This document shows, piece after piece, positions 5,793-64,000 of a stretch of 64,000 nt of DNA; the stretch's first letter is position 1, and each line of letters starts with the position of its first letter. The notes beneath the pieces were generated by a model that ran no database searches, was not told where the DNA came from, and worked only from the letters and a program-made list of their open reading frames with translations. Source of the stretch: an uncultured Planctomycetaceae bacterium (GTDB lineage Bacteria > Planctomycetota > Planctomycetia > Planctomycetales > Planctomycetaceae). The stretch covers positions 232,603-296,602 of the forward strand of contig CAVQRG010000006.1 of the NCBI GenBank assembly GCA_963715185.1, given 5' to 3'. The position numbers and the translations under genes are program-made.

Positions 5793-5948
5793 TGTTCGTC
5801 ACACACGGCCTCCCTGCGGCATCAGCGAGTCGTCCGGCGAAACAGAAGCCACTCCAAGTTCGGGCTGCCCGCCGCGGCCTGAGGCGATAGACTGAATGGC
5901 CGGCCGACCACACAACTTCCCAACTCAGCGACGATCGACGTCACCCGC

Positions 5949-7968
5949 ATGGCCTCGTCTCCAACACATCCTGCCTCGCGCGAACCGGCAACCGTCCGAA
6001 AGCGCCGGGCACAACCGCGCCCGCTGGCCCTCAAGCTGCTGTACACACTGCTGGCCGTGGCGGTGTTCTTTGCGCTGCTCGAGGGTCTGCTGGCGATCTG
6101 CGGCGTCCGCGCATCAGCCGATCGCGCAGATCCGCTCGTCGGTTTCGCCGGGGGTCGCCCCCTGTTCGTCGAAGAGCCGGCTCCCGACGGCACCGTCGAC
6201 CTCGTAACGGCGGAGCCGAAACTCACCTGGTTTAACGCCCAGCGATTTCCGCGAGAGAAACCCCCGCAGACAAAGCGCATCTTCTGCCTCGGGGGATCGA
6301 CGACCTATGGACGCCCGTACGACGATGCCACGTCGTTCTGTGGCTGGCTGAGGGCTTTCCTCCCCGTGGCCGATCCCACACGTCGCTGGGAGGTGATCAA
6401 CGCCGGGGGCATCAGCTACGCGAGCTATCGGGTCGCGCGGCGTGATGGCCGAGCTGGCCGAATACTCGCCCGACCTGTTCATCATCTACTCTGGACACAA
6501 CGAGTTTCTGGAGCAGCGGACCTACACGATGCTGGCCGGGTCGTCCGAGGCGACCCGCCAGACGATCGGCTGGCTGAGTCAACTGCGGACGTTCGCCGCA
6601 CTGCGCTCGGTCGTGCGACCGGACCAGCCCACGCAATCCGCGCCCCCCCGGCAGAACGTGCTGCCCGCCGAGGTAGAGACACTGCTCGACAGTTCGGTTG
6701 GTCTGGATGCCTATCATCGCGACCGCGACTGGGAGCGCGGGGTGGCGGCGGACTACCGGCGACATCTCGAACGCATGCTGGACGTGGCGGAGGCGAGCGG
6801 CGTGCCCGCGATCCTGGTGGTGCCCGCATCTCAACTGCGCGACTGCAGTCCGTTCAAGAGCGAGCATGCCCCCGACCTGACCGAACCAGCGTTAACGGCA
6901 TTTCGCACGGCCTACGAGAGCGCGCTGGCAGCACAACAGCAGGGAGACCTGCCGGACGCCCTCGCGCACGTGGAGGCGGCTTTGGCGATTGATCCGCAGT
7001 ACGCCCATGCCCAGTATCTGCGCGGGACGCTGCTGTGGGAGTTGCAGCGACCGGAGGAGGCGCGAGCCGCCTTCATTCGGGCCCGCGATGAGGACATCTG
7101 TCCGCTGCGTGCGACGACCGGGATGTGTGACATCGTCCGTGAAGTCGCCCGGGCGAGACATGTCCCACTGGTGGACTTTGTCGCGCTCACACAGTCCCTT
7201 GCCGAATCCGGCGTCCCGGGGGCCGACCTGTTTCTCGACCACGTTCATCCGACCATCGAGGGGCATCGCCAGTTGGCGCTGCAACTGGTCGACAAGCTCT
7301 CGAATATCGGCGCCCTCACCCCCAGCCCCAACTGGGACGCAGCAGCCGTCGCACGTGTTACTGCAGAGGTGGAGAGCCGGATTGATCCGGAGGCCCACGC
7401 CCGGGCCCTCCTCAATCTGTCGAAGGTCCTCAGTTGGGCAGGCAAGTATGCGGAGGCAGATCGGCTGGCTCTCCAGGCTGGCGAACTGCTGCAGAGCGAC
7501 GCGGAGGCCCTCTACCAGGCCGCCGGGGCGAAGTACCGTGCAGGGGACCTGCCGGGCGCCCTGCGACTTTTCGAACAGGCGGCTGAGGTCGATCCCACAT
7601 CGGGCCCTGCCCACTACGGTGTCGGGCTGGTGCTGGCCGAAACCGGTCGACTCGACGAGGCACTGTCCGCCTATGCACGGGCAGCGCAACTCAGGCCGCA
7701 ACAACTGGAGATCCGCTTCAACTACGGCAACGCACTGAGTGACGCGGGTGACTTTTCGGACGCCGAACGGGAATATCGTGCCGCCATCCGCATCCAGCCG
7801 GACTTTGCCCCGTCGCACAACGGCCTGGGCATCGCGTTGGTGCAACAAGGCAAACTGCCGGAAGCGATCGCAGCTTTCCAGCGCGGCGTCGCGCTCGATC
7901 CCGGAGATGTCGAGACCCGCTCCAACCTGGCCAGGGCCGAGGCCCTGGCCAGCGAACGATCGCAATAG
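5949..7968 (+). pseudogene. SGNH/GDSL-type hydrolase fused to C-terminal TPR repeats, one frameshift near 6441
   Basis: ORF 5949.. gives ...KRIFCLGGSTTYGRPYDD...VINAGGISYASYRVAR. The sense continues in ORF 6442..7968 as VMAELAEYSPDLFIIYSGHNEFLEQ..., followed by TPRs. One extra nucleotide sits between the two frames. Confidence 0.8.
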
Positions 7969-8407: not shown

Positions 8408-8505
8408 GTTCCTGGTCGGCAGAGCTCAACAATGAACGACGCTGGCCCCGGGCTCCGCACGAGACCCCGGGACCATGGCGCCGTTCAGCCAATTCCGGGG
8501 GCAGG

Positions 8506-9605
8506 TCAGAATTCCCCGATCGTTTCATTGCCCTGGATCGTCAGCAGTGCACGATACTGCGGGCGGTCGATGTTCTCGCCGATGAACCGGACGGCCCCGT
8601 CGCAGAGCAACATCTGGACACCACCCTCATGGCGGCTGCGGGCGGCAACGCCCCCCTTGCCATCGTTAGTCTCGTCGAGACAACGAAGGTCCCTGTCGCC
8701 GGCACTTCCACCGCAGAATGCAGGGGAGTCGGCCCACGCCGTGCGATTCCCCGCGTTGTCCTCGGCTGGAGCATTGGGAGTGGCGATCCCGTCCGGGCCA
8801 TCCTCCGGACGCCAGGGCGCACCTCCTTGCCCTCCCGTGTAGGCACTGAAGATCGCGCCGTGGGCGAGTCCCCAGCAACCGCGGCAGTCACCGTTACTCG
8901 TATTCTCGTGCAGGATTTCACCAATGGCGACCGTATTGCTGGTGCCGTCCAGCACGTCGCGAATGCCGGCGCCCCAGCGACGGTTGCCCGTTCCGCGGCT
9001 CCCGAAGACACCGAGGTTCTTCGAGCGGGCCCAGTTTGCGGTGCCATCGATGCCGTTCTGCCCGGTGTTTTCGTTGGCGTACGCCCCACCGTAGTTGGCC
9101 CCGTAGTTTCCGCGCACGTAAACCGAACGCTGGCCATTGCTCTGTGGGGGAGGTTCAGCACCGCCGTTCCCCTGCACGAGCTGCGCTGCAAATCGCTGGG
9201 ACACATGAAGACCGCCAGAATCGCCCCGGTCACCTGCGGCTGATCCCGACTGGCACGATTGGAATCCCACAGATTGTACAGCGGGGCCTGATCTAAGTTG
9301 GGCAACAGCGAGATGGCCCACGTGGTGCTCCAGTCGGAGGCACGAAACTGCGGATCCGTGCCACAGTTGTCGTTCCAGCTCGGGCCGCCGTTGCATGCAG
9401 CCCCCAGCGGGAACTGATTGAAGACGTCGTGGTAGTTGTGCAGCGCCAGGCCGAGTTGCTTGAGGTTGTTCTTGCACTGCGTCCGACGTGCGGCCTCGCG
9501 CGCCTGCTGCACGGCCGGCAGCAGCAGGGCAATCAGGATCGCGATGATCGCAATCACCACCAGCAATTCAATCAGCGTGAATGCACGTCGCGTTAAGTTC
9601 TTCAT
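8506..9605 (-). pseudogene. DUF1559 / H-X9-DG protein with prepilin-type signal, frameshift near 9185-9200
   Basis: ORF 8541..9605 has the N-terminus [17 protein letters not shown]...[16 protein letters not shown] and then loses sense. ORF 8506..9477 carries the conserved C-terminal two thirds (...[25 protein letters not shown]...[24 protein letters not shown]...GEF). That part is collinear with the intact paralog 10757..11875. Confidence 0.85.
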
Positions 9606-19703: not shown

Positions 19704-22700
19704 ATGCACGCTTGCCGCCCGGAGACCATGCTCGGATTGCTCGCGACGTGTGGCGCGCTGTTGGGCCTGCCGGCGATGGTGCAGGCGGCGAAAGACACAT
19801 CACCGTTGGCGCAGACCGGCGCCGAGGCCCCCCCGATTGACTTCGTTTCGAACGTCCGGCCCCTCCTGTCCAATCGCTGCTTTCACTGTCACGGACCGGA
19901 TGAGAGTTCACGGGCGACGGAGTTGCGACTCGACACCAAGACTGGCGCGTTCGCCGATCTCGATGGTACGTCGGTCATCGTCCCCGGCGATCCCGAGGCC
20001 AGTGAACTGTGGCGGCGGGTGAGCGCACAGGACCCCGATGTGCGGATGCCACCGGCCGATGCGGACCAGCAGGCGCTGACGCCCGCCGAACTGAACACGG
20101 TCCGGCGCTGGATCGAGGAGGGTGCCAACTGGGAGGAGCACTGGGCGTTCGTGGCGCCCGTCCGCCCACCGCTGCCGGATGTCAAAGACTCCTCGTGGCC
20201 GGTCAACGAGATTGATACGTTCACTTTGAGAGAGATGGAAGTCCGCGGATTCGCCCCCTCGGCCGAAGCCTCGCGCGAGACACTGCTGCGGCGCGTTACG
20301 CTGGACCTCACGGGCCTGCCGCCGACCATCGAGGAACTCGACGCGTTTCTGGCCGACGATTCCCCGGATGCGTACGAACGGGTCGTCGATCGCCTCCTGC
20401 GGTCTCCACGATACGGAGAGCAGATGGCGCGTGGCTGGCTCGACGTGGCCCGCTACGGAGACACCCACGGACTGCACCTGGACAACGAAAGATCGATCTG
20501 GCCTTACCGGGACTGGCTGCTCAACGCCTTCAATGAAAACCGGCCGTTCGATCAGATGACGATCGAACAGCTGGCGGGGGATCTGCTGCCGGACGCCACC
20601 ACCTGGCAGCGGGTCGCGACGGGCTTTATCCGGTGCAACGTCAGCACGAACGAAGGGGGAGCCATCGAGGACGAGGTGCACGTCCGCAATACCGTCGACC
20701 GTGTGGAGACTTTTGCGACCGCGTATCTCGGGGTGACGCTCGGGTGTACCGTCTGCCACGACCACAAGTTCGACCCGTTTACGCAGCGGGAGTTCTATGG
20801 CCTGTTTGCGTACTTCAACAGTCTCGAACCGAAGGCCATGGATGGCAATGCCCTCCTGCATGCCCCGTTTATCGAGGTCCCTTCTCCGGAACAGCGGAGC
20901 CGCCGCGAGGAACTCGAAGGGGCGATCGCGGCGGTGAACCAGGAGATTCAGCAGACCATCGATGGTCTCGAATACACCGATCCGCACGCCGACGAGGATC
21001 CGGAGAAGCTGCCCAGTGAGGACTTCGTCTGGATCGACGACGATGTCCCCTCGGAAGCCCAGCTTCAACAGGACGGACACCCCTGGGAATGGGTGACCGA
21101 GCCGGTCCACTCCGGAACGCGGGCCACGCGGCGGAGTGTGGATGCGCTGGGTCAGCATTTCTTCACCGGGGCCACGCCGCCACTCATTCTCGGCCGGGGA
21201 GACAAGCTGTTCGCCCATGTCTATCTGGACACGGAGAATCCACCGAACGCCATCATGCTGCAATGGAACGACGGTACGTGGGAGCACCGGGCGTACTGGG
21301 GCACCGCCCAGATTCCTTACGGCAATCACAACTCTCCCGGCAAGCGGCGGATGGGCCAGCTTCCCGCGACCGGCCAATGGGTGCGACTCGAGGTACCCAT
21401 TGACAAGGTCGGGCTGACGCCGGGAGCCACGGTGCATGGCTGGGCATTCACCCAGTTTGGGGGGACCGCGTACTGGGACACGGCGGGTGTGATGACCCGG
21501 ACTCCGCAGGGGAGCCAGGCGTTTACGTCGCAGCGGCTGTGGGAACTGGCGCGCCGGAGAGGGGGCCAGCTTGCCGAAACCGGTCCAGCAGGCGATCAAG
21601 GTGGCTCCTGCAGCTCGGAATGACAAGCAGCGGGCCCTGCTGCGCCAGTACTTCCTCGAGAACATCTACCTGGACACTCAGGGGAGACTGCAGCCGCTGA
21701 CCCAGAAGCGCGTGGCACTGGAAACCGCGCTGACTGAACTGAACGACGAAATCCCCAAGACCATGGTCGCGGAGGAAATGACCGAGCCGCGACAGGCTTA
21801 CTTTCTCAATCGCGGTGAGTACGACAACCGCGGTGAAGCGGTGGAGCGCCACCTGCCCGCCGTGCTTGCCCCCCTGCCTTCGAACGCCCCGGAAGACCGC
21901 CTGGGTCTGGCGCGCTGGCTCGTCGATCCGTCGCACCCGCTGATGACTGCGCGTGGTCGTCAACCGCTGGTGGCAGCGCTACTTCGGCACCGGGATCGTC
22001 AAGACCCCCGAGGACCTCGGCATTCAGGCCGAGCCGCCGTCACACCCCGAGCTGCTCGACTGGCTGGCGACCGAATTCCTCAGTTCCGGCTGGGACGTCA
22101 AGCATATGCAGAAGCTGATCGTCATGTCCGCGACGTATCGGCAGTCGTCGCAGGTGACCAGTGAGGCCCTGCAGCGCGACCCGGCCAACCGCTGGCTCGC
22201 GCGGGGACCGCGCTTTCGCATGCCGGCGGAGATGATCCGCGATGCGGCCCTGTCCGTGAGCGGACTGCTCGTCGAAAAGCTGGGCGGACCGAGCGTGAAA
22301 CCCTATCAGCCCGACGGACTCTGGGAGGCGGTCGGCTACACCGACAGTAACACGGCGAACTTCGCCCAGGATGACGGGGAGAACCTGTATCGGCGCAGCC
22401 TGTACACCTTCTGGAAGCGAACCGCTCCGCCCCCCGCGATGAGCACGTTCGACGCGCCGTCGCGCGAGGCCTGCACGGTCCGCCGCGCGCGGACCAATAC
22501 ACCGCTGCAGGCGCTGACGCTGATGAACGACAGGCAGTTCGTCGAGGCATCGCGGCACTTCGCCGCTCGGATGCTGGCAGAGGGGGGAGAGACGCCGGAT
22601 GCGCGTTGACGTGGGGATTCCGTCTGGTCACCGCCCGGACACCGGACGAGCACGAGCTGTCGGTGCTGCAACATGTCCTCGAGGATCATCTCGCCGAGTT

Positions 22701-22863
22701 CAACGCCAACCCCGACGCCGCCACGCGACTCATCGATTCGACGACCACACGGCTGCAACCCGATCACCTCGAGCGGGACAAGTCACACGATGCGGAACTG
22801 GCCGCGTGGACGATGATCGCCAACCTGCTCCTCAATCTCGACGAAACCGTGACCAAGGGGTGA
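19704..22863 (+). pseudogene. PSCyt1 (planctomycete cytochrome c) - DUF1549 - DUF1553/PSD1 protein, at least 3 frameshifts
   Basis: Four ORF pieces in different frames: 19704.., 21571.., 21953.., 22606..22863. Motifs are [99 protein letters not shown] and [18 protein letters not shown]. Breaks are near 21550-21570 (includes a G5 run), 21950 and 22600. Confidence 0.9.
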
Positions 22864-22868
22864 CGACG

Positions 22869-24337
<1,469 letters not shown>

Positions 24338-24398
24338 GACCTGCGGACATCCGCCGCGCGGTCTTCATGGGTCGCCGCGACAGGCCACGAGGAGCAAC

Positions 24399-24739
24399 AT
24401 GAGGCTGTTCGAGGGGACCCCGTTTGACAGACCGCCGCACTGCGAGCGGTGCGGTGAGCCTGAAGAGCAGTGCACCTGCCCGCCACCTGTGCCGACTCGG
24501 CTCCCCCCCGAACGACAACTGGCAAAGCTGTCGATTGAGAAGCGAGGCAAGGGGAAACGCGTGACCGTACTCCGCGGTCTGTCGGCCCCGGATACCGACC
24601 TGCCCGAGCTACTGACGCGGTTGAAGTCCGCCTGCGGCGCCGGGGAACGCTCAAGGACGATGTCCTTGAAATCCAGGGGACGCAACTCGAAGCCGTCCGC
24701 GAGTTCCTCACGCGGCTGGGATACCGCGTGAAAGGATGA
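24399..24739 (+). pseudogene. translation initiation factor SUI1/YciH family, one frameshift near 24643
   Basis: MRLFEGTPFDRPPHCERCGEPEEQCTCP...KLSIEKRGKGKRVTVLRGL...LKSACGAG, then shifting one frame gives GTLKDDVLEIQGTQLEAVREFLTRLGYRVKG stop. The break sits at a GGGG run where GGGGG restores the frame. Confidence 0.8.
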
Positions 24740-55306: not shown

Positions 55307-55675
<369 letters not shown>

Positions 55676-55699
55676 TTTTTCACACCTCACCCTTCCGCT

Positions 55700-56576
55700 C
55701 GCCGCCCTCTGCTGGGTGGCTGGGTTCGGAGCGCAGCGACGCCCCCAGGATCCCGAGCAACCGGGGACTCGTCTGCGGCTCGACTCCAGCCACTCTCTCA
55801 GCATCGGGTAGCACCGGTTGCCCCAACCGGTGCCGCGCAGCGGCAGGAAGCTCTGCATGTCGCACTGCTGCACCTGCCAGACAGGTAGGGCCGACTATCG
55901 CCGTCCCTACAGGGCTGAGTCGGCAGATCACACCTCGTCCGCTCGCGGTCTCATGGCTCACGCCTGGCACCCTCCCGGGCTCTCTCAGCGAGAAGTTCTC
56001 CGCTTTCCGCAGTCGTTAACGGAGCGCCCGACATTGCAGCCAGAGTGTGATCCTGTTTGAATGGTAGCCAGCCCCGTCCTCTGTACCCACGGCGAGGTGC
56101 CGACCATGACAGTCGCCACTCAGCATCGGTGCGCACCACTCGGCCTGTTTCCCGACAGGCCCGAGCCGCGTCTCTACCAGGCTGTTGAAATACAAGCCCG
56201 AAGCGCCAGCGAGGGAATCCTGGAGGACCAATCACCCGCGAATCTGGGCTCCACTCGCTCGCGCGTCGTGCCGGTATCCGATGATTCAACGGGTTGCAAC
56301 GACCGCACCATCGAAGTCCTGCGAGTCCACCATGACCGCCGGCGTACGAAGCAGGCATCGGACCATCGACGCCTGAAGGTGTCCCGCTCTGGACTCTCGG
56401 CACTCGCCCCTCGGCTCTGTGACGACATCCGCACTGTGCAGGAGTTGCTCGGCCACAGCGACGTTCGGACGACGATGATCTATACTCACGTTTTGAACAA
56501 GGGTGGACGCGGTGTCCGCAGCCCGCTGGAGCGGATTCGAGAGTTGCTCGCGCGGAGCGAACGGATAAACGACTGA
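55700..56576 (+). pseudogene. intI: decayed integron-integrase (IntI-type tyrosine recombinase), N-terminally truncated at rnpB, multiple frameshifts
   Basis: The C-terminus [36 protein letters not shown] is a near-canonical IntI end. Upstream, spread over three frames but collinear with the intact IntI at 60979..61980, are W.R., [43 protein letters not shown] (matching LYGSGLRLM), RHSASVR (matching RHTIHVR) and ...LP. Confidence 0.8.
55805..55891 (+). repeat. 87-nt direct repeat copy R1 (inside the decayed intI)
   Basis: CGGGTAGCACCGGTTGCCCCAACCGGTGCCGCGCAGCGGCAGGAAGCTCTGCATGTCGCACTGCTG...GCCAGACAGGTAGGGC. 80 of 87 positions are identical to 59561-59647. Confidence 0.9.
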
Positions 56577-56612
56577 GCGTTATCGAGAAACGTCGTTCCG
56601 GATAACGCTCAG
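56573..56612 (+). terminator. perfect 12-bp hairpin overlapping the stop codon of the decayed intI
   Basis: CTGAGCGTTATC, a 16-nt loop, then GATAACGCTCAG. It could be a terminator or a protein-binding palindrome. Confidence 0.4.
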
Positions 56613-56735
56613 CCGACTCCTCCACGCATTTGCCGCAACGAATGACTTCGATTACACTTACAGCCGCCTGACCGACCTCGGCCATGCGCGGTATCCGCAA
56701 ACGCCCGCGGATTATACAGATCTGCATAAACACTA

Positions 56736-56742
56736 GTTAGCT
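56736..56742 (+). other. candidate attI/first-cassette recombination core GTTAGCT
   Basis: AAACACTA-GTTAGCT-GCC lies 160 nt after the intI stop and 31 nt before the first cassette ATG. It is the same core type as GTTCGCC (57472) and GTTAGCC (58259; minus strand at 60811-60805). Confidence 0.45.
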
Positions 56743-56766
56743 GCCAGGTAACATAGAGGGGCTACC

Positions 56767-57378
56767 ATGCCGGACGACTTTCCCAAATGGGCCTCGCCGG
56801 AAATATGCGATCAACTTCCAGGCATCCGGGAAGCCGGTGAATCGACTAACGTCGACTTCAAAGAGTCATTTCCCGATCAAGCGCATCGGCTTGGCAAGGA
56901 GATTGCTGCGATGGCAACATCCGGTGGCGGGCGCATCTTTATCGGTATCGACGACGACGGCGGTCTTCACGGAGTCGATGCATCAAACGGTGATGAGCGG
57001 GACGACATCGCAGAACGCGCACACAACATCGCCCTGACGGTGAAACCCATTCCAAACGTGAACCTGATGTTTGCCGTCGAGTCCGGCAGGACTGTCCTGG
57101 TCGTTGATGTCCCAAAGCAGTCGGATCCGGTCTACTATTACGATTTCCGCCCGTATGTCCGCGATGAGCGGCGAGCAAGACCGGCAGAGCCCGACGAAGT
57201 CGTTGAGCTGGTATGGGCACATCCAAGCTCCGGACACAAGAAGGAAATGGAACGAATTCTGCAACACCAAATGCAGAACTTCATCGACCACAATCGCGAA
57301 CTCGATAAGATCTCCGCAGACCAAATGCGTGCCTTCAACGAAACAATGAACGCTCCAAGACGCAACATGGGGCGGTAG
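56767..57378 (+). CDS. AlbA_2 (Schlafen-type putative DNA-binding) domain protein; candidate cassette 1
   Basis: 203 aa: GESTNVDFKESFPDQAHRLGKEIAAMATSGGGRIFIGIDDDGGLHGV...VLVVDVPKQSDPVYYYDFRPYVRD, then a short coiled coil. RBS GAGGGG sits 6 nt upstream. GC is visibly lower than in the flanks. Confidence 0.75.
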   Translation: MPDDFPKWASPEICDQLPGIREAGESTNVDFKESFPDQAHRLGKEIAAMATSGGGRIFIGIDDDGGLHGVDASNGDERDDIAERAHNIALTVKPIPNVNLMFAVESGRTVLVVDVPKQSDPVYYYDFRPYVRDERRARPAEPDEVVELVWAHPSSGHKKEMERILQHQMQNFIDHNRELDKISADQMRAFNETMNAPRRNMGR

Positions 57379-57385
57379 CCAACAA

Positions 57386-57478
57386 GCCAGCTAACAACCG
57401 ATTGCAACCGAGCGGCGGGGCGGGGCGTTCCTGAAGTCAACGGTTCTTCGCCGCCGCCGGGTTACCTTGAGCGTTCGC
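57386..57478 (+). other. candidate attC site A (imperfect palindrome)
   Basis: AGCTAAC (57389-95) pairs with GTTCGCC (57472-78). The inner stem is GCGGCGG (57412-18) with CCGCCGC (57451-57). The central loop TTCCTGAAGTCAACGG is shared with site B. Confidence 0.5.
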
Positions 57479-57637
57479 CACCTCAGGCGGCAAACGTTGC
57501 GGATGAGCCGTGAGGGTCACCCGCAATGCGACGGTGGGTTCCCCCACCACAGAGCCCGGGACGCCGGCGCCACCCGGCGTCGTGCCGGGGGCTCATCCGA
57601 AACGTTATCTCACGACATCCAGAGGACATTTCCACCA

Positions 57638-58168
57638 ATGGCTGATGTGACGATCCGAGAGCTCGCATCTGACTTGGAGATTGATCGCAGCCAGCTGCGC
57701 AAATGGGTCATCAAGCAACTGCCCGAAGTTTCGATCCACAAGATTCGTGATCCGAATGGTAGTGGTCTCGAAGTGATGGCCGTGTCATCTGGCGAGGCAG
57801 ACAAGATTCGCGAAGCTCGTACGAACTGGGACGGAAGCCGCGTTGCCAGAAGTGGTACTGATCAAACGCAGTTCGGCGTCTTCTATGCCATTCAATTGCT
57901 GCCGGAAATCTATCCGACCCGCATTAAGTTTGGGTATGCGACGGACGTAGAAGATCGCCTGATGACACACCGCTGTACGTGCCCAAATGCCGTCGTCCTA
58001 AGAACGTGGCGCTGCGATCCCAAATGGGAGCAGACGGCACTTGCTGCGGTTCGGAATCTCGACGAATCCGTTCTTGTCGGCGGCGAGGTGTACGACTGCA
58101 CGTCATTCGATCTCGTCGCTGAGCGACTCGATTCATTTTTCTTAATGCTTACCCCAACTGAAGAATAG
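57638..58168 (+). CDS. T5orf172/MUG113 (GIY-YIG-like) domain protein with N-terminal HTH-like segment; candidate cassette 2
   Basis: ATG 57638 gives MADVTIRELASDLEIDRSQLRKWVIKQL...FGVFYAIQLLPEIYPTRIKFGYATDVEDRLMTHRCTCPNAVVLRTWRCDPKWEQTALAAV...VGGEVYDC. Confidence 0.7.
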   Translation: MADVTIRELASDLEIDRSQLRKWVIKQLPEVSIHKIRDPNGSGLEVMAVSSGEADKIREARTNWDGSRVARSGTDQTQFGVFYAIQLLPEIYPTRIKFGYATDVEDRLMTHRCTCPNAVVLRTWRCDPKWEQTALAAVRNLDESVLVGGEVYDCTSFDLVAERLDSFFLMLTPTEE

Positions 58169-58177
58169 ACCGTGGCA

Positions 58178-58265
58178 TTGCAAACCGTTCCACACGGAGC
58201 CGCGGGCCGCGCGGGTTCTGAAATCAACGTCGTTCGCCGCGGCCCGGTGAACGGTGACGTTAGCC
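58178..58265 (+). other. candidate attC site B (imperfect palindrome)
   Basis: TGCAAAC (58178-84) pairs with GTTAGCC (58259-65). Further stems are ACCGTTC (58184-90) with GAACGGT (58249-55), and CGGGCCGCG (58203-11) with CGCGGCCCG (58238-46). The loop is GTTCTGAAATCAACG. Confidence 0.5.
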
Positions 58266-58295
58266 ACCAATGGTCTGAAGCGTTCGGATGAGTTC

Positions 58296-59456
58296 ATGCT
58301 TACGAAGCCGGCGGCGTCCAATGTGGTCGAGGTCATCTGCCAGGGTTCCCCCAAGGAGATGGGCTTGGCTCAAGGCGCGGGCGTACAGAACAAGATACAT
58401 GCTGCACGCCAAGTTCTTACCAAGCTGGAGGCGTTTCGCCTACAGCAGCCTTGGTGGCTACCCTATCGTGTCTACCGCTGGCTAGCCGAATACAAGGCGT
58501 CGCGGTTTCTTGCGCACTGCGACAACCCGGAAATGAGCCAACGCTTGGCAGGCATCGCAGAGGGAGCCGGCGTCAGTCTCAAGGCCATCTGTCTCTTTAA
58601 TGCCTTGGAGCCGCTCCTGTCGTCCGTGGGCGGTTGCACTGCGTGTCCTGGGGCGTGCTCGGCGGTTGCAGTGCGGGGCCGGCGCTCGGCGCACGGGAGA
58701 ACCCATCGTCGCCCGTAACTTTGATTACCTGCCACTGGTCCAGCCCTTCTACCTTGTGCGGGAGAGCCGATCACAAGGCAAGTTGCGGGCGTTCGAATTT
58801 ACGACCGCTCCTTTGGCCGGTGCCGTCGACGGCATGAATGAAGAAGGGTTGTGTATCACGTACAATTATGGCTTCACTACGGACGAGCCATCTGCCCCCG
58901 CTGCCCCGATCTCGATGGCCATTTCCGAGGCCCTGGGGCGCTGCGGAACCGTCGCTGAGGCGGCTGACTGGATTACCTCAAGGCCGCGCTGGGGTGGCGG
59001 GTTGCTCATGCTTTGCGATGCGAGCGGCGACATGGCCTCCCTGGAGTTATCGAGTACACGAAGCTATCTGCGCCGACCAGCCTCGGATGAAGATGTGCTG
59101 TTCCACACCAATGCGTTCTCCAGCGCCCCATGCGCGAAGTCCAGGTGCCGTGGAACGCGCTTTACACGAATTATGCTCCCACTGCCTTGCGTGGGCGGAG
59201 GCTCCATCAGTCATCGGAGTTACGAGACCGACGGTTCAAACAACTTCTGGCCGAGGTTGACGTTCTCGACGGCAGTCGGCTGGGGGCCATCATGGCTGAT
59301 CACGGCTCAGATGGCACCCCAAGTGATGACACGCCCTGCGTTCACGGTTCGTACTGGTATACAACAGCCTGTTTACAGTTTTTTCCAAAAGAGCGGCGGA
59401 TGCGCGTTGCCTACAACACTGCTTGCCGCGCGAATTTCGAAGATGTGGTTTTGTAG
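58296..59456 (+). pseudogene. peptidase C45 / acyl-CoA:6-APA acyltransferase family protein, two frameshifts; candidate cassette 3
   Basis: MLTKPAASNVVEVICQGSPKEMGLAQG...LLSSVGGCTA (Ntn nucleophile G-C-T), then GEPIVARNFDYLPLVQPFYLV...AVDGMNEEGLCITYNY...LMLCDASGDMASLELS, then MREVQVPWNALYTNY...CVHGSYWYTTACLQFFPKERRMRVAYNTACRANFEDVVL. Breaks are near 58690 and 59128 (a C4 run). Confidence 0.75.
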
Positions 59457-59560
59457 CCGCATCGCCCAGGGCTTAACGCAGGCGTCTATCTCGCTGGCAG
59501 ATGCGCCAGCGGCTAACCATCGCATCCACCGGAGCGACGGTGGCCAGCCGATTTTCAAAC

Positions 59561-59647
59561 CGGGTAGCACCGGTTGCCTCAACCGGTGCCGCGCAGCGGC
59601 AGGAAGCTCTGTATGTCGCACTGCTGGCCAAGCCAGACAGGTCGGGC
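59561..59647 (+). repeat. 87-nt direct repeat copy R2 (displaced fragment of the intI N-terminal region)
   Basis: 80 of 87 positions are identical to 55805-55891. Weaker similarity extends about 40 nt upstream and about 100 nt downstream. Confidence 0.85.
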
Positions 59648-59900
59648 TTTGCCTGACGACACGCATCGCCCTGACGACGTCTGGTTCAACGTCCGATGCG
59701 GGTAAGGAATCGGCTGACGCCCGTGCATGGCACCTTCACGCCGGGTCGTCATGCGGAGCATGACCAACGTCACATCCGCCTTCCGTCCTCAACTCCTTAC
59801 TCCCAGCGTGTCCCCACAGGTTGACTTCACCACACAGTCACGGAGACACTGGGGCGAATTCTCCTCCGTGCTGTCTGCAACCCTGCCAGGTGCTTCCCCG

Positions 59901-60340
59901 ATGCGAATCCCCGTTCTCTCCGCCTTTGTCATCAGTCTGCTTCCACTCTCGGCACCCGCCGATGACACCACGTACGACGTCGTCATCTACGGAGGCACGT
60001 CGGCCGGGGTGATCGCCGCCGTCCAGTCGACCCACATGGGGAAGTCCGTCGTCATCGTGGCCCCGGAAACTCACCTCGGCGGGTTGACTGCGGGGGGCTG
60101 GGCTGGACCGACAGCGGCCGCAAGGAAGTGATCGGCGGACTGTCGCGCGAGTTCTACCAGCGTCTCAAGGTGCATTACGATCAACCTGCCGCCTGGCGAC
60201 AGCAGCAGCCCGCAGAGTATCGCCTGTATCGACCCGATGACGACGCCATGTGGGTCTTCGAGCCCCATGTGGCCGAACAGACCTACGACGCCTGGATCGC
60301 GGAGCTGCAGATCCCGGTCGTCCGCGACGCCTGGCTCGAT
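59901..60340 (+). pseudogene. FAD-dependent oxidoreductase (PF12831-like), N-terminal fragment only, one frameshift near 60097
   Basis: [66 protein letters not shown], then [29 protein letters not shown]...WVFEPHVAEQTYDAWIAELQIPVV. The break is at a G6 run where G7 restores the frame. Family similarity is lost after about 60340. Confidence 0.7.
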
Positions 60341-60383
60341 ACCCGCACCGCGAGGGCCTTGTACCTCAATGCTGTGACGAGGG

Positions 60384-60426
60384 GGCCAACAACCTCTTCG
60401 CGACAGCAGCAATTCCTTGTTAGACC
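60384..60426 (-). other. candidate short attC-like palindrome ending the minus-strand cassette
   Basis: On the minus strand: GGTCTAACAAGG ...22 nt... GGTTGTTGGCC. The stems are GGTC/GGCC and AACAA/TTGTT with one bulged T. GTCTAAC fits RYYYAAC, and GTTGGCC is of the GTTRGCC type. At 43 nt it is shorter than typical attC sites. Confidence 0.35.
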
Positions 60427-60804
60427 GCGGACAGGTTGCGGGCGGTCCCCGACAAACCCATCGCCCGTGAACTCTGCGAGGTCCAGTTTGAGCAGCCCCG
60501 AAACCCCGCCCGGCGACTCGGGGACCGCCCGTTCAGGCGCTCGGAGGACGCCCTTCCCTTGATCGGGACAGCGGACGCCGTGCTCTTGGATGACGGTTGG
60601 CGAGGCGTGCCCGATCTGGGATCGCGCGGACGGAGAAGCGCCGCACCTAGCCGATGCGAGCCAGCCTGGGCGCCCTCGTGAGGTTCGCGGCGCCGCGTAC
60701 TGAGCGAAGCCCCAGTTCAACGCTTTTCAAAGCAGTTGTGGAGTCCAGAGTCACGAACCGAGCGAGGATCTCTGTCGTGGCGAGCGAGGCAGGGACGACC
60801 CACG

Positions 60805-60811
60805 GGCTAAC
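60805..60811 (-). other. candidate attI recombination core GTTAGCC (minus strand)
   Basis: The minus strand reads GAATCAGA-GTTAGCC-CGTG, 168 nt after the stop of the intact intI. This is the same geometry as 56736 in the decayed locus. Confidence 0.4.
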
Positions 60812-60978
60812 TCTGATTCAACTGACCCACGCCGCACTATCGCGCGCCGCGGGGCCGTCCATGTATTCACTCCCCAGGGACGCGGGGCAACTGCCCTCTG
60901 CGGACGGACGATGGCGCCATTTTGGTGTCGCCCCCACCCTGGCTGCGTACGCGGGTCCGCATAACCTCCCCGGCCATC

Positions 60979-61980
60979 CTACAGCCGATCCAGCGGGCTC
61001 CTGACCCCGGCGGGCCCGTTCATCAGCACGTGGGTATAGAGCATGGTTGTCTTGAGGTCCCGGTGCCCGAGGAGCTGCTGGACGGTCCGAACGTCCACTC
61101 CGTCCTCCAATAGATGGGTGGCGAACGAGTGCCGGAACGTGTGGCAGGTGGCATGCTTGGCGAGGCCGGCGCGACGCACGGCTTCCTTCACCGCCCGCTG
61201 AAGGATCGAGGGGTCGCAGTGATGCCGGCCCTGACGGCCGGTCCTGGGGTCCCGCCATCGGCTCCGCTGTGGAAAGACCCACTGCCACCCCCACTCCGTC
61301 ACGGCTTGGGGATACTTCCGCGCCAGGGCTTCGGGTAGGTCGACCCGCCCGTGCCCTTCGGCCAGGTCCTCCCTATGCGTCTCCTTCACCACGGCCAGGT
61401 GGTGCTTCAGCGCTTCATCCAGACTCTGCGGCAACATGGTGGCTCGGTCCTTGGCGCCCTTGCCGTCCCGCACGTGGATGGTGTGGCGTCCGAAGTCCAC
61501 GCTCTGGACCCGCAGCCGCAGGCACTCCATGAGCCGCAGTCCGGATCCATACATGAGCCGCGCCATGAGTTGCGTGTCGCCGTCCATGTGCTGGATCACG
61601 TCCCGGACCTCCCGGCGCGTCATCACCACCGGGATCCTCTCCGGCATCCTGGCCCGCGCGACCCCGTCCAGGTCGCCGAGGGAACGCCCCAGGACGTGCC
61701 GGTACAGGAACAACAGGGCGCTGAGGGCCTGGTTCTGCGTCGAGGCGCTCACCCCCTGGTCCACGGCAAGGTGCGAGAGGAACGCCCCGACCTCCTCCGC
61801 CCCCATTTCGTCGGGGTGACGAAGACCGTGGAACCGCACGAACCGGCGCGTCCACAGCACATACGCCTTCTCCGTCCTGACGCTGTAGTGGCGCGACCGC
61901 AGTGTGGCCCGGAGTCGCTCCAGTAGTTTCGGTGCGGGGGCCATGTCCCGGAGATCGCGCCTCGGGGTGGGCGCATCCAT
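60979..61980 (-). CDS. intI: integron integrase (IntI-type tyrosine recombinase), intact
   Basis: 333 aa: [64 protein letters not shown]...[17 protein letters not shown]...[15 protein letters not shown]. It carries the IntI-specific insertion [40 protein letters not shown]. The end is [52 protein letters not shown]. Confidence 0.92.
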
Positions 61981-62002
61981 GGCCCCTGGGACGAACTGCG
62001 AC

Positions 62003-62586
62003 CTAGCGCACGATCTCCACGATCTCCGCCCGAACCTCGCCGTCGTCTCCGACCCGGACCTTGGCCACCGTCACCGGAAGGGTGAACCGCCTCGGTCCGG
62101 CACTCCCGGGATTGAGATAGAGCACCCTGCCCCACCGTTCGTTCAGCGGCTTGTGCGTGTGCCCGCTCACCACCAGGGCGATCCCGGCGGCTTCGGGATC
62201 CAACTCCAGCTCCCGGTCGCCGTGATGGACGTACGCCAGCGGCCCCGTGGGCACGGGTGCGCCGGACCCTTCTGCGATCCGTCCGTCCGGGGCTCCCAGG
62301 TCCACCACCACGCTCCGGGGCAGCCCGCTCCGCAGCGCTCCGTAGTCGGTGTTCCCGTGCACGGCAAACACCGGCGCGATCCGCTCCAGGGCTTCCAGAA
62401 TGGCCGGGTCGCCCACGTCCCCGGCATGGAGGATGAGGTCGCTTCCCCGAAGTGCCTGCAGCGGCTTCCGGACGCAACAGCTCCGTGGGTGTCCGAGATC
62501 ACGCCGATGGTCTCGCACCGTTCCCTTCGCCTCTTGGTTCCGCTTGCCGCTGGGTGGATCCGGGACCCAGCTTTGGGCTCGTCCAC
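62003..62586 (-). pseudogene. YfcE/MJ0936-type metallophosphoesterase, two frameshifts near 62460-62485
   Basis: ETIGVISDTHG, then LLRPEA, then LQALRGSDLILHAGDVGDPAILEALERIAPVFAVHGNTDYG...LVVSGHTHKPL...YLNPGSAGPRRF, in three frames. The stop is 23 nt upstream of the intI start on the same strand. The 5' end is uncertain. Confidence 0.75.
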
Positions 62587-62610
62587 TCCTCCGGCTACCC
62601 CGAGGTCCCC

Positions 62611-63283
62611 GTGTCGTGCGCCCAGTGTAACGGTATCGTCCAGGAGTTCGACGACCGCCTCGCCCGGCGCGAACTACGGCGCTACCGGCGACGCGGCCCG
62701 TCGGGCACGACGCGGATCGACTCCTGGACGCCTCCGCGACCGGGGCGTGGAGGGGCGCTCGTTCCTCGACGTCGGGGGTGGCGTTGGTGCCGATCCAACA
62801 CGGGCTCATGGCCGCGGGCGCATCCCATGGTACCCATGTGGACGCGTCTCCCGCCTACCTGGCGGCGGCCAGCGACGAGGCCGTGCGCCTGGGCCATGCC
62901 GACCGCGTGCGCTACGTGGAGGGGGACGTCGTGACGCTGGCTCCCTGAGCTCGAACTCGGCCGACGTCGTCACCCTCGACCGGGTGGTGTGCTGCTACGA
63001 CGACATGCCTGCCCTGGTGGACGCCTCTGCGTCCCGTGCCCGCCGGCTCTACGGGCTGGTCTTACCCCGGGAGCACCTTCCAATGCGCCTGGCGTTCATC
63101 GGCACTCAACCTCATCCAGCGCATCCGCGCGCCGTCCCTTCAACGTCTTCCTCCACGGCACTGCGGCGGTGGAGGCCCGCGTCCGCCGCCACGGCTTCCG
63201 TAAGATCTTCTCACGCCCACTCTCCCCTCTGGCAGATCCACCTCTACCGCAAGGACGACGGGACCGCCCCCGCCGCCTCCTGA
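62611..63283 (+). pseudogene. class I SAM-dependent methyltransferase with N-terminal CxxC, about six frameshifts
   Basis: Readable only by frame hopping: (V)SCAQCNGIVQEFDDRLARRELRRYRRRGPSGTTRI, LLDA, RDRGVEGRSFLDVGGGVGA and IQHGLMAAGASHGTHVDASPAYLAAASDEAVRLGHADRVRYVEGDVVTLAP. It continues NSADVVTLDRVVCCYDDMPALVDASASRARRLYGLVLPRE, LNLIQRIRARPFNVFLHGTAAVEARVRRHGFRKIF and PLWQIHLYRKDD. Confidence 0.7.
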
Positions 63284-63288
63284 CCATC

Positions 63289-64000
63289 ATGGACCTCTCC
63301 GTTCTCCACCCTCGACGTCTTCACGGATCACACCTTCGGCGGCAATCCCCTGGGCGTCTTTCCCGACGCGTCGCATCTGCCTACCGACCTCATGCAGCGC
63401 GTCGCCCGGGAGATGAACCTCTCCGAGTCCGTCTTCCTGGGGCCGCCCGAATCCGACGAGGGTGCGGCCCGCGTCCGCATCTTCACGCCAGGTATCGAGG
63501 TGCCCTTCGCGGGCCACCCCACCGTGGGCTCCGCCATCTACCTGGCCGCCCTCCTCCCCGACCCGCCCACCGAGGGGACCGTGACGCTGGTCCTGGACGA
63601 GAACGTGGGGCCCGTTCCCGTGGACGTCCGCTTCGAAGACGGGGTTCCGGTCTTCGCGCGCTTCACCACGGCCCTCCTCCCTGAGCACCGGCCTTCGACC
63701 GTCCCCGACGCCGACCTGGCGCGCATGGTGGGGCTCGACGCCTCGGATCTCCACCCGGACGCTGCGCCCGGAGATGGTGTCGTGCGGCCTTCCTTACTAT
63801 GTGGTCCCCATCGCGTCCCTCGAGGCCATCCGCCGGGCGGTCCTGGACACCGCCCTCTGGCAGCGCCTGGTCGCGCCGCTCTGGGCCGACCATGTCTACC
63901 TCGTCTGCCCCGAGGCCGAGTCCCAGGGAGTAGACATGCACGTGCGCATGTTCGCGCCGGCGGCAGGCGTGCCCGAGGATCCGGCCACGGGTTCTGCTGC
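63289..64000 (+). pseudogene. PhzF-family isomerase, two frameshifts, 3' end beyond the window
   Basis: ATG 63289 gives MDLS. One frame over reads FSTLDVFTDHTFGGNPLGVFPDASHLPTDLMQRVAREMNLSESVFLGPP...RVRIFTPGIEVPFAGHPTVGSAIYLA. After a break near 63752 it reads LRPEMVSCGLPYYVVPIASLEAIRRAV...VDMHVRMFAPAAGVPEDPATGSA. Confidence 0.8.

Follow-up and report, generated by a model that had tools for sequence, protein, structure and literature searches.

Introduction

Clusters of attC sites without an integron integrase have been described under the name CALIN, and 15 of 279 of these lie next to remnants of the integrase gene intI, which are counted as pseudogenes when they cover more than 50% of the profile; several intI genes are carried by 20% of integron-bearing genomes (PMC4889954). 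Integrons are already established in Planctomycetes, as is a sub-clade with an inverted integrase (PMC8352920; PMC4889954). Inverted-integrase integrons are known as the Treponema denticola type, and as the “inverted IntI” sub-clade of the soil/freshwater clade (PMC4889954; PMC8352920). Here we describe a related locus in a 64,000-nucleotide stretch of DNA, hereafter the window, from an uncultured Planctomycetaceae bacterium (GenBank assembly GCA_963715185.1, contig CAVQRG010000006.1, positions 232,603 to 296,602 of the forward strand). Positions 56421-59560 of the window are probably the relic of a second, inverted-type chromosomal integron, next to an intact resident integron on the opposite strand. 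This reading is carried by a stub of intI, by the crossover junctions, by the homology and structure of the attC sites, and by one cassette that is found again in a second genomic context. A first-pass annotation, made from the letters alone, had proposed a full-length but decayed intI abutting rnpB, the RNase P RNA gene, and followed by three cassette-like units. The same-strand array behind an intI remnant has been borne out, and the extent of the remnant and the number of units have had to be revised. Two features had no place in that annotation at all: an intact integrase gene at 60979-61980 (-) with its own attI, and an 87-nt direct repeat.

The relic has much in common with CALIN. Its short array has four attC sites, of which two are complete and two are atypical or truncated, and holds non-resistance cassettes; the integrase is lost, a C-terminal remnant of IntI lies nearby, and an intact IntI is encoded elsewhere in the genome. 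CALIN contain at least two clustered attC sites, and here a covariance model (CM) finds two, attC1 and attC2, which are joined by the palindrome of cassette 2a and by half of attC3. They also lack any intI within 4 kb, and in this respect the locus differs, with an intact intI 2.7 kb from the R' of attC2. That gene is biologically separate from the relic, being on the opposite strand and of a different lineage. Because it lies within 4 kb, IntegronFinder would probably report one “complete” integron, despite a convergent and non-functional geometry. Herein lies a trap for annotation: tools based on distance would probably combine the intact intI and these foreign attC sites of opposite orientation into one “complete” integron. 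A further difference is the short extent of the remnant, which at only about 12% of the IntI profile would fail the pseudogene rule of more than 50% coverage (PMC4889954).

The likeness to inverted-integrase integrons is equally plain. In both platforms of the window, as in three related loci (L014, L017, and L019), intI points towards the cassettes, the cassettes share one strand, and attI lies 160-260 nt past the intI stop. The orientation of intI given in the first-pass annotation was therefore right, but not the minority status attached to it, since this arrangement is the rule and not a rarity among the relatives of this IntI (L014, L019, L017). What sets the locus apart is its state: one platform is reduced to a stub, and the resident integron has a single cassette, followed by a truncated attC that runs into a broken housekeeping gene. 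In Xanthomonas, too, chromosomal arrays have survived the inactivation of their integrase: ilvD-linked integrons with an inactivated intI are fixed there as relics beside a housekeeping gene. The present case differs from these in phylum, orientation, and neighbouring gene, in that intI is truncated rather than inactivated by point mutations, and in that a second, intact integron lies alongside. Finally, there is a likeness to islands linked to stable RNA genes, seen in a foreign block of lower GC content beside rnpB, in the 87-nt direct repeats, and in the RNA-proximal position of the integrase remnant. Here, however, the repeat is not the 3′-end of the RNA gene but starts 125 nt beyond rnpB, and integrases of the integron type, to which the remnant belongs, do not carry out integrations of this kind.

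The locus is thus a CALIN-like relic beside a resident inverted-type integron, of a known kind and ordinary for the field, and it leaves the current understanding of integrons unchanged. Its value is that of a clean worked example of integron death, with an integrase stub, eroding attC sites, and persisting cassettes, all adjoining a living integron of a different lineage, by which the relic might still be acted on in trans. Modestly noteworthy are its convergent pairing with a live integron, the annotation trap set by that pairing, and the 87-nt repeats. It also adds AlbA_2 and GIY-YIG-like genes to the planctomycete cassette pool.

The intI Stub and Its Putative attI Region

What is left of the integrase gene occupies 56421-56576 (+), 156 nt encoding the last 38 conserved residues, a 13-residue tail, and a stop codon. 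The 171-amino-acid open reading frame (ORF) ending at 56576 reaches 64.8 bits against TIGR02249, over model positions 277-315 of 315 only; XerC scores 33.9 bits on the same ORF, and XerC/XerD about half of the TIGR02249 score. The nearly canonical IntI C-terminus noticed at first reading is therefore genuine, and the stub is 82–92% identical to the C-termini of many IntI proteins.

Full-length IntI motifs had also been claimed from about 55700 onwards, scattered over three frames. A profile was built from the neighbouring intact IntI and 120 database homologues (121 sequences), and searched with every heuristic filter disabled against each of the six reading frames of 55600-56800, stop codons being masked. 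It matches only positions 297-334, at 56421-56534 (60.7 bits). A tblastn search with the neighbouring full-length IntI (333 residues) recovers residues 296-333 and nothing more, and the 86 matches that tblastn gives between the stub and other integron loci all start at the same residue. Nothing outside the last 50 residues aligns, an outcome that the first-pass annotation had itself listed as refuting, and the relic has no full-length integron-type intI. Nor does the structure begin within some 25 nt of the 3′-end of rnpB, as had been thought, since there is no IntI match upstream of 56421; rnpB and the stub are separated by 741 nt of unrelated, unassigned DNA. Within this interval, the 529 nt at 55892-56420, between copy 1 of the 87-nt repeat and the stub, have no IntI match in any frame, hold ORFs without a Pfam match, and match nothing in the 100 fetched loci.

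The inferred attI region of the relic lies at 56577-56742 (+) and ends in the crossover site G|TTAGCT (56736-56742), which had already been picked out and which is found 159 nt past the stub's stop codon; the corresponding distance in the attI of the intact neighbour is 167 nt. Within the region, GTTAGCTG is the exact complement of CAGCTAAC, the R'' of attC1.

The Cassette Array

The array is made up of four cassettes, which carry in turn an AlbA_2 gene, no ORF, a gene for a 176-amino-acid protein, and a C45 acyltransferase gene. All cassette ORFs are on the same strand, their attC sites begin 6–55 nt past the ORF stops, and the leaders of 30, 33, and 36 nt each contain a Shine-Dalgarno-like motif.

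Cassette 1 (56737-57473, +, 737 nt) carries the AlbA_2 ORF at 56767-57378 (PF04326, 66.6 bits) behind a 30-nt leader. It ends in attC1 (57389-57479, +), with R'' AGCTAAC and R' GTTCGCC (57473-57479). Cassette 2a (57474-57604, +) has no ORF, and its 131 nt are essentially one long palindrome. The palindrome spans 122 nt (57489-57610), with R'' GGCAAAC, R' GTTATCT, and AACGTT at both ends; it folds at -41 kcal/mol (z = -4.6), and none of 200 shuffled sequences folds as well. We take this palindrome for an attC of atypical form, belonging to a cassette without an ORF. Cassette 2b (57605-58259, +, 655 nt) contains the 176-residue ORF at 57638-58168, whose true start is the ATG at 57638, after a 33-nt leader. 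Its attC2 (58174-58265, +) has an R' GTTAGCC (58259-58265) and an R'' degraded to GGCATTGC. In cassette 3 (58260-59560, +), the C45 acyltransferase ORF follows a 36-nt leader, occupies 58296-59456, and changes frame twice (NF040521, 104.6 and 45.7 bits; PF03417, 54.7 bits). Only the 5′ half of attC3 remains: R'' GGCTAAC at 59511-59517, a spacer, L'', and part of the loop, ending at about 59560.

The three units originally proposed become four cassettes because a crossover site, GTTATCT at 57604-57610, cuts unit 2 in two. With this split, the odd leader of about 160 nt in unit 2 disappears in favour of one of 33 nt, and the short leaders of units 1 and 3 stand at 30 and 36 nt. The first two palindromes do end as described, in GTTCGCC and GTTAGCC, and the third is indeed partial. 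The lower GC content of units 1 and 2 is also real, at 0.53–0.58 across 56650-58300 vs. 0.63–0.70 in the flanks. The gene assignments hold for AlbA_2 and C45 acyltransferase, but T5orf172 as the identity of the 176-residue protein is unsupported at Pfam thresholds, the only match being MUG113 (15.1 bits, E = 0.037). The AlbA_2/Schlafen-like and GIY-YIG-like cassette genes likely have a nucleic-acid-targeting function. Cassette ORFs give marginal matches only against PADLOC and PHROGs, and the cassette proteins have no homologue in the 100 fetched loci.

The junctions are supported by the complementarity of R'' to the start of its own cassette, a rule that holds, on direct reading, throughout the authentic array of L014. 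The agreement is 8/8 in cassette 1, 6/7 in cassette 2a (GGCAAAC against GTTCGCC), and 7/7 in cassette 3, where GGCTAAC is the exact complement of the start GTTAGCC. In cassette 2b it is only 4–5/7 in the window, against 8/8 in an orthologous cassette described below. The sites are also related in sequence: attC1 and attC2 are identical in 62 of 98 alignment columns, with complementary changes in the stem, the attC3 half aligns with both as far as the loop, and all three are homologous to one another and to a bona fide attC site of L014.

Covariance-Model Evidence for attC

Palindromes alone are not diagnostic in a GC-rich window. A generic attC descriptor (AAC…GTT, at least 5/7 complementarity, hairpin) was rejected as not discriminating, since it matches about 150 places in the window. 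Covariance models were built from real sites. Through the IntI relatives, 86 integron loci were fetched, and attC sites were harvested from them by the rule that R'' be complementary to the crossover site at the start of its own cassette. A model named R2, built from 23 sites, was used to collect 75 attC sites from the 86 loci, and was then rebuilt as R3. R3 is home-built and distinct from the attC model of IntegronFinder, and contains no sequence from the window.

In an unfiltered search of both strands of the 64 kb (128 kb in all), the best R3 match lies at 58175-58265 (+), with 19.4 bits and E = 0.049, and the second at 57377-57479 (+), with 18.4 bits and E = 0.081. Both end exactly at the predicted R' of attC2 and attC1, respectively, and the next match has E = 0.79. 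On the 5.4 kb of 55600-61000, the E-values are 0.004 for attC2 and 0.0068 for attC1. Elsewhere in the window R3 does not exceed 13.7 bits, and in 89.6 kb of integron-free planctomycete DNA, used as a control, its maximum is 16.9 bits. Ranked first and second above the controls and yet low in score, attC1 and attC2 are therefore divergent or eroded, but not due to chance. The best control score falls at 6645-6734 of L002, a metagenome-assembled genome (MAG) of Pirellulales. About 600 nt away, this genome has two inverted matches to the Acido-Lenti-1 RNA above the Rfam threshold (5908-5953, +; 5993-6038, -).

One Cassette in Two Genomic Contexts

The 176-residue protein of cassette 2b is rare, with only two relatives among 5.8 billion proteins. 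The closer one (89% amino acid identity) lies on a metagenome contig of 736 nt, L102, and here the same cassette is seen in two contexts with its boundaries at G|TT; this has been observed for cassette 2b only. At the 3′-end, window and L102 resemble each other precisely as far as GACG|TTA (58259/58260), and beyond it the two are unrelated. Towards the 5′-end, the 33-nt leader shares only about 60% identity with that of L102, and the sequence upstream of G|TTAT is unrelated. This motif, at 57604/57605 in the window, reads GTTATGCC in L102, and GTTAT is found 33–34 nt ahead of the ATG in both. The R'' of the L102 attC, GGCATAAC, is the exact complement of its own cassette start GTTATGCC, which fixes the 5′ start of the cassette in L102, and the GTTATCT of the window (57604-57610) sits at the homologous position. 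The 5′ boundary of cassette 2b nevertheless appears less sharp than the 3′ one, and would rest mainly on this complementarity in L102.

The L102 attC scores 27.5 bits with R3, and the window's attC2 falls below it because its R'' has mutated to GGCATTGC. Between the two copies there are five compensatory base-pair changes, against 0–2 in slid controls.

The second, more distant relative (57% amino acid identity) is found at 10001-10540 of L101, a 25.7-kb metagenome contig. L101 is phage-like, with portal, terminase, and DnaB genes; the relative stands alone there, oppositely oriented, with its own apparent promoter and a hairpin downstream, and no attC was found beside it. Judged from these contexts, this rare gene occurs as an integron cassette in one setting and as a phage gene in another.

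The Resident Integron

An intact integron integrase gene of 333 codons lies at 60979-61980 (-), matching TIGR02249 over its full length with 469.6 bits against a cutoff of 265. The relatives of this IntI are 97–65% identical; the contigs that carry those at 97% end about 80 nt past the gene, and are thus uninformative on the downstream DNA. The adjacency of a Metallophos_2 gene and intI, with PhzF upstream, is conserved in two related loci (L012 and L020), and a third (L016) has a Metallophos-like gene next to intI; the methyltransferase gene between PhzF and Metallophos_2 is found, among the relatives, in L012 only. This conserved synteny identifies 60979-61980 as the resident chromosomal integron of the lineage.

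Its attI (60805-60978, -) has the crossover site GTTAGCC at 60811→60805, 167 nt past the stop. It is conserved in L016, L012, and L014 up to AGAG|TTAG and diverges directly after, which is what identifies the region as attI and places the crossover at 60811/60810 (-). A single cassette follows (60426-60810, -), 385 nt long, without a convincing ORF or any Pfam match, and bounded by the attI crossover and a half attC. The latter is the 5′ half of a site of the resident family (60425→60400, -), GTCTAACAAGGAATTGCTGCTGTCGCG, also written GTCTAACAAGGAATTGCTGCTG. It fits the consensus of the models R1–R3 over R'', spacer, and L'', its R'' is 6/7 complementary to the start GTTAGCC, and it is fused to the antisense of a truncated flavin adenine dinucleotide (FAD)-dependent oxidoreductase gene. 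The cassette also contains a perfect 14-bp inverted repeat (60439-60452/60518-60531) with a 65-nt loop.

The resident intI is 4.4 kb from the stub and is oriented wrongly to serve the attI of the relic. Over the 38 residues of the stub, the two integrases are only 68% identical, the attI regions are unrelated, and the half attC belongs to a family (consensus of L014c and L019c) that differs from that of attC1-3; these three differences indicate two integron lineages. The two integrons stand tail to tail, their half attCs facing each other across about 860 nt of backbone.

Direct Repeats at the Ends of the Foreign Block

Two copies of an 87-nt direct repeat, 92% identical, lie at 55805-55891 (+) and 59561-59647 (+). 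Copy 1 begins 125 nt past the end of rnpB, without overlapping it, and copy 2 abuts the cut attC3, which ends exactly where the repeat starts (59561). The homology is limited to the 87 nt and stops sharply at both ends, and the copies bracket exactly the foreign block formed by the 529 unassigned nucleotides, the stub, attI, and the cassettes. The element has a 10-bp hairpin, GCACCGGTTG-CCCC-CAACCGGTGC in copy 1, whose fold has a z-score of -2.6. No further copy was found in the window, in the 100 fetched loci, or in viral contigs; the six-frame peptides of the repeat match nothing among 5.8 billion proteins, and Rfam returns nothing at relaxed thresholds. As to origin, the repeats may stem from the Campbell-type insertion of a circle of 3.76 kb, from local duplication, or from an effect of the assembly.

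Weighing the Explanations

On the relic reading, the integrase gene would have been deleted down to its last 156 nt, leaving the platform's recombination junction G|TTAGCT in place 159 nt past the stop. The four cassettes would each once have been inserted by IntI-catalysed attI × attC recombination at the G|TT bond. In the order of events that we infer, the array would since have become non-autonomous and partly degraded, the R'' of attC2 being mutated and attC3 cut in its loop; its cassettes may be expressed, and any further movement of them would need an integrase in trans, for which the resident IntI is the obvious candidate. Several points weigh against this reading. The attC1 and attC2 scores (18–19 bits) are weak beside the 22–78 bits of real attC sites elsewhere, as scored with R2, and the R3 E-values rest on a shortened calibration. 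Of the narrower models, neither R1, seeded with 7 sites from close relatives, nor R2, seeded with 23, reaches significance at the proposed sites; R1 is judged too narrow, since it missed most of the real attC sites in the 86 integron loci. Cassette 2a has an atypical attC that lacks an unpaired spacer and is missed by R3. The relic attI has no homologue among the 100 fetched loci, and a promoter scan found no sigma-70-like promoter, including inside the cassettes. The 529 nt upstream of the stub and the 87-nt repeats are without explanation, and frame changes at homopolymers suggest that the assembly is prone to indels here.

Could the palindromes be ordinary terminators, or repeats of the repetitive extragenic palindromic type, after ancestral genes, with the GTT motifs a coincidence? 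The 150 or so places matched by the generic descriptor speak for it, but it is scarcely credible when the two best CM matches coincide with the predicted sites, the cassette starts find their complement in R'', and the orthologous cassette of L102 has an unrelated 3′ flank from exactly G|TT, an attC of 27.5 bits, and five compensatory pairs; moreover, the genes are absent from the closest genome. Scarcely better founded is the original idea of a full-length intI that decayed in place by frameshifts over about 55700-56576, abutting rnpB. The IntI C-terminus at 56421-56576 is genuine and an indel-prone region makes scattered frames conceivable, and yet the profile run at maximum sensitivity on every frame of 55600-56800 finds positions 297-334 only (to the sensitivity of HMMER). 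The tblastn search with the 333-residue IntI is confined to residues 296-333, the shared starting residue of the 86 stub matches argues against it too, and a copy of the 87-nt repeat sits inside the proposed gene. It is also very unlikely that the relic array and the intact intI are one integron, split and inverted by a rearrangement. The pieces are only 2.7–4.4 kb apart, both arrays end in half attCs that face each other across the backbone, and the 4-kb clustering of IntegronFinder would merge them (PMC4889954). The stub, however, shows that the relic had its own integrase, which over its last 38 residues shares only 68% identity with the intact IntI, and neither the attI regions nor the attC families of the two agree.

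The neighbourhood of a stable RNA gene is a classic site for islands. One may ask if the 3,756-bp unit bounded by the repeats, made up of one repeat copy, the 529 nt, the stub, attI, and the cassettes, arrived downstream of rnpB as a separate circular element, recombining in Campbell fashion at an att-like or homologous sequence of 87 nt; the relic integron would then have been imported already truncated, and not have decayed in place. The 92%-identical repeats that bracket the foreign block exactly, with homology ending sharply, the cut of attC3 at the very start of copy 2, the position beside a stable RNA gene, and the variability of the interval between rnpB and the FAD-oxidoreductase gene among relatives all fit such an entry. 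Against it, the repeat starts 125 nt past rnpB without overlap, there is no integrase that could act on such a sequence, searches for further copies of the repeat came up empty (window, 100 loci, 5.8 billion proteins as six-frame peptides, viral contigs), neither an empty site nor a second instance is known, and a local duplication would give the same picture; we consider it unlikely. Somewhat more doubtful still is the broader proposal that the repeat-bracketed 3.76-kb block is, or was, a discrete mobile unit carrying a miniature integron (attI and cassettes) by means of the hairpin-bearing, att-like 87-nt sequence. If true, whole cassette arrays could move between planctomycete chromosomes by a route not described before, and the two inward-facing half attCs would be the scars of such events.

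Chromosomal Context and Sequence Quality

The rnpB gene itself lies outside the integron, at 55307-55679 (+), and is full length (Rfam RF00010, 288.6 bits). On the other side of the foreign block, the chromosomal backbone resumes with a 5′ fragment of the FAD-dependent oxidoreductase gene (59727-60400, +), truncated and frame-shifted, which matches only positions 1-112 of 416 of PF12831. Over 59959-60276, it is 86% identical at the DNA level to the closest genome of the collection, L001, a Planctomycetaceae MAG whose RsgA is 78% identical in amino acids. Collinearity between L001 and the window extends to the final base of rnpB and resumes with the FAD-oxidoreductase gene; the interval is taken up in L001 by 2.7 kb of other genes, encoded on the opposite strand, without an R3 attC match and without the 87-nt element, and L001 thus offers no exact empty site. 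This interval varies between relatives. Because L001 has other genes there, the AlbA_2, 176-residue, and C45 ORFs are, from comparison with relatives as the first-pass annotation had advised, not ancestral at this position.

Both frame changes of the C45 gene coincide with homopolymers, GGG at about 58696 and CCCC at about 59125. The FAD-oxidoreductase, Metallophos_2, S-adenosylmethionine-methyltransferase, and PhzF genes are also frame-shifted, with up to 92% protein identity to relatives; the resident intI is intact, and most genes in the first 55 kb look intact. This cluster of frame changes (58260-64000) suggests indel sequencing errors rather than decay, and since the changes point to such errors the cassette genes were not treated as pseudogenes. 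Far from the integron region, at 22599-24402, a DUF1501 gene matches only positions 1-116 of the 390 of its profile, and the overlapping ORF next to it is without a match; this may be another frame change. In L001, the RNase P RNA match (8439-9064, -) spans 626 nt, against 373 nt in the window, with an extra segment of about 225 nt between the equivalents of window positions 55559 and 55591.

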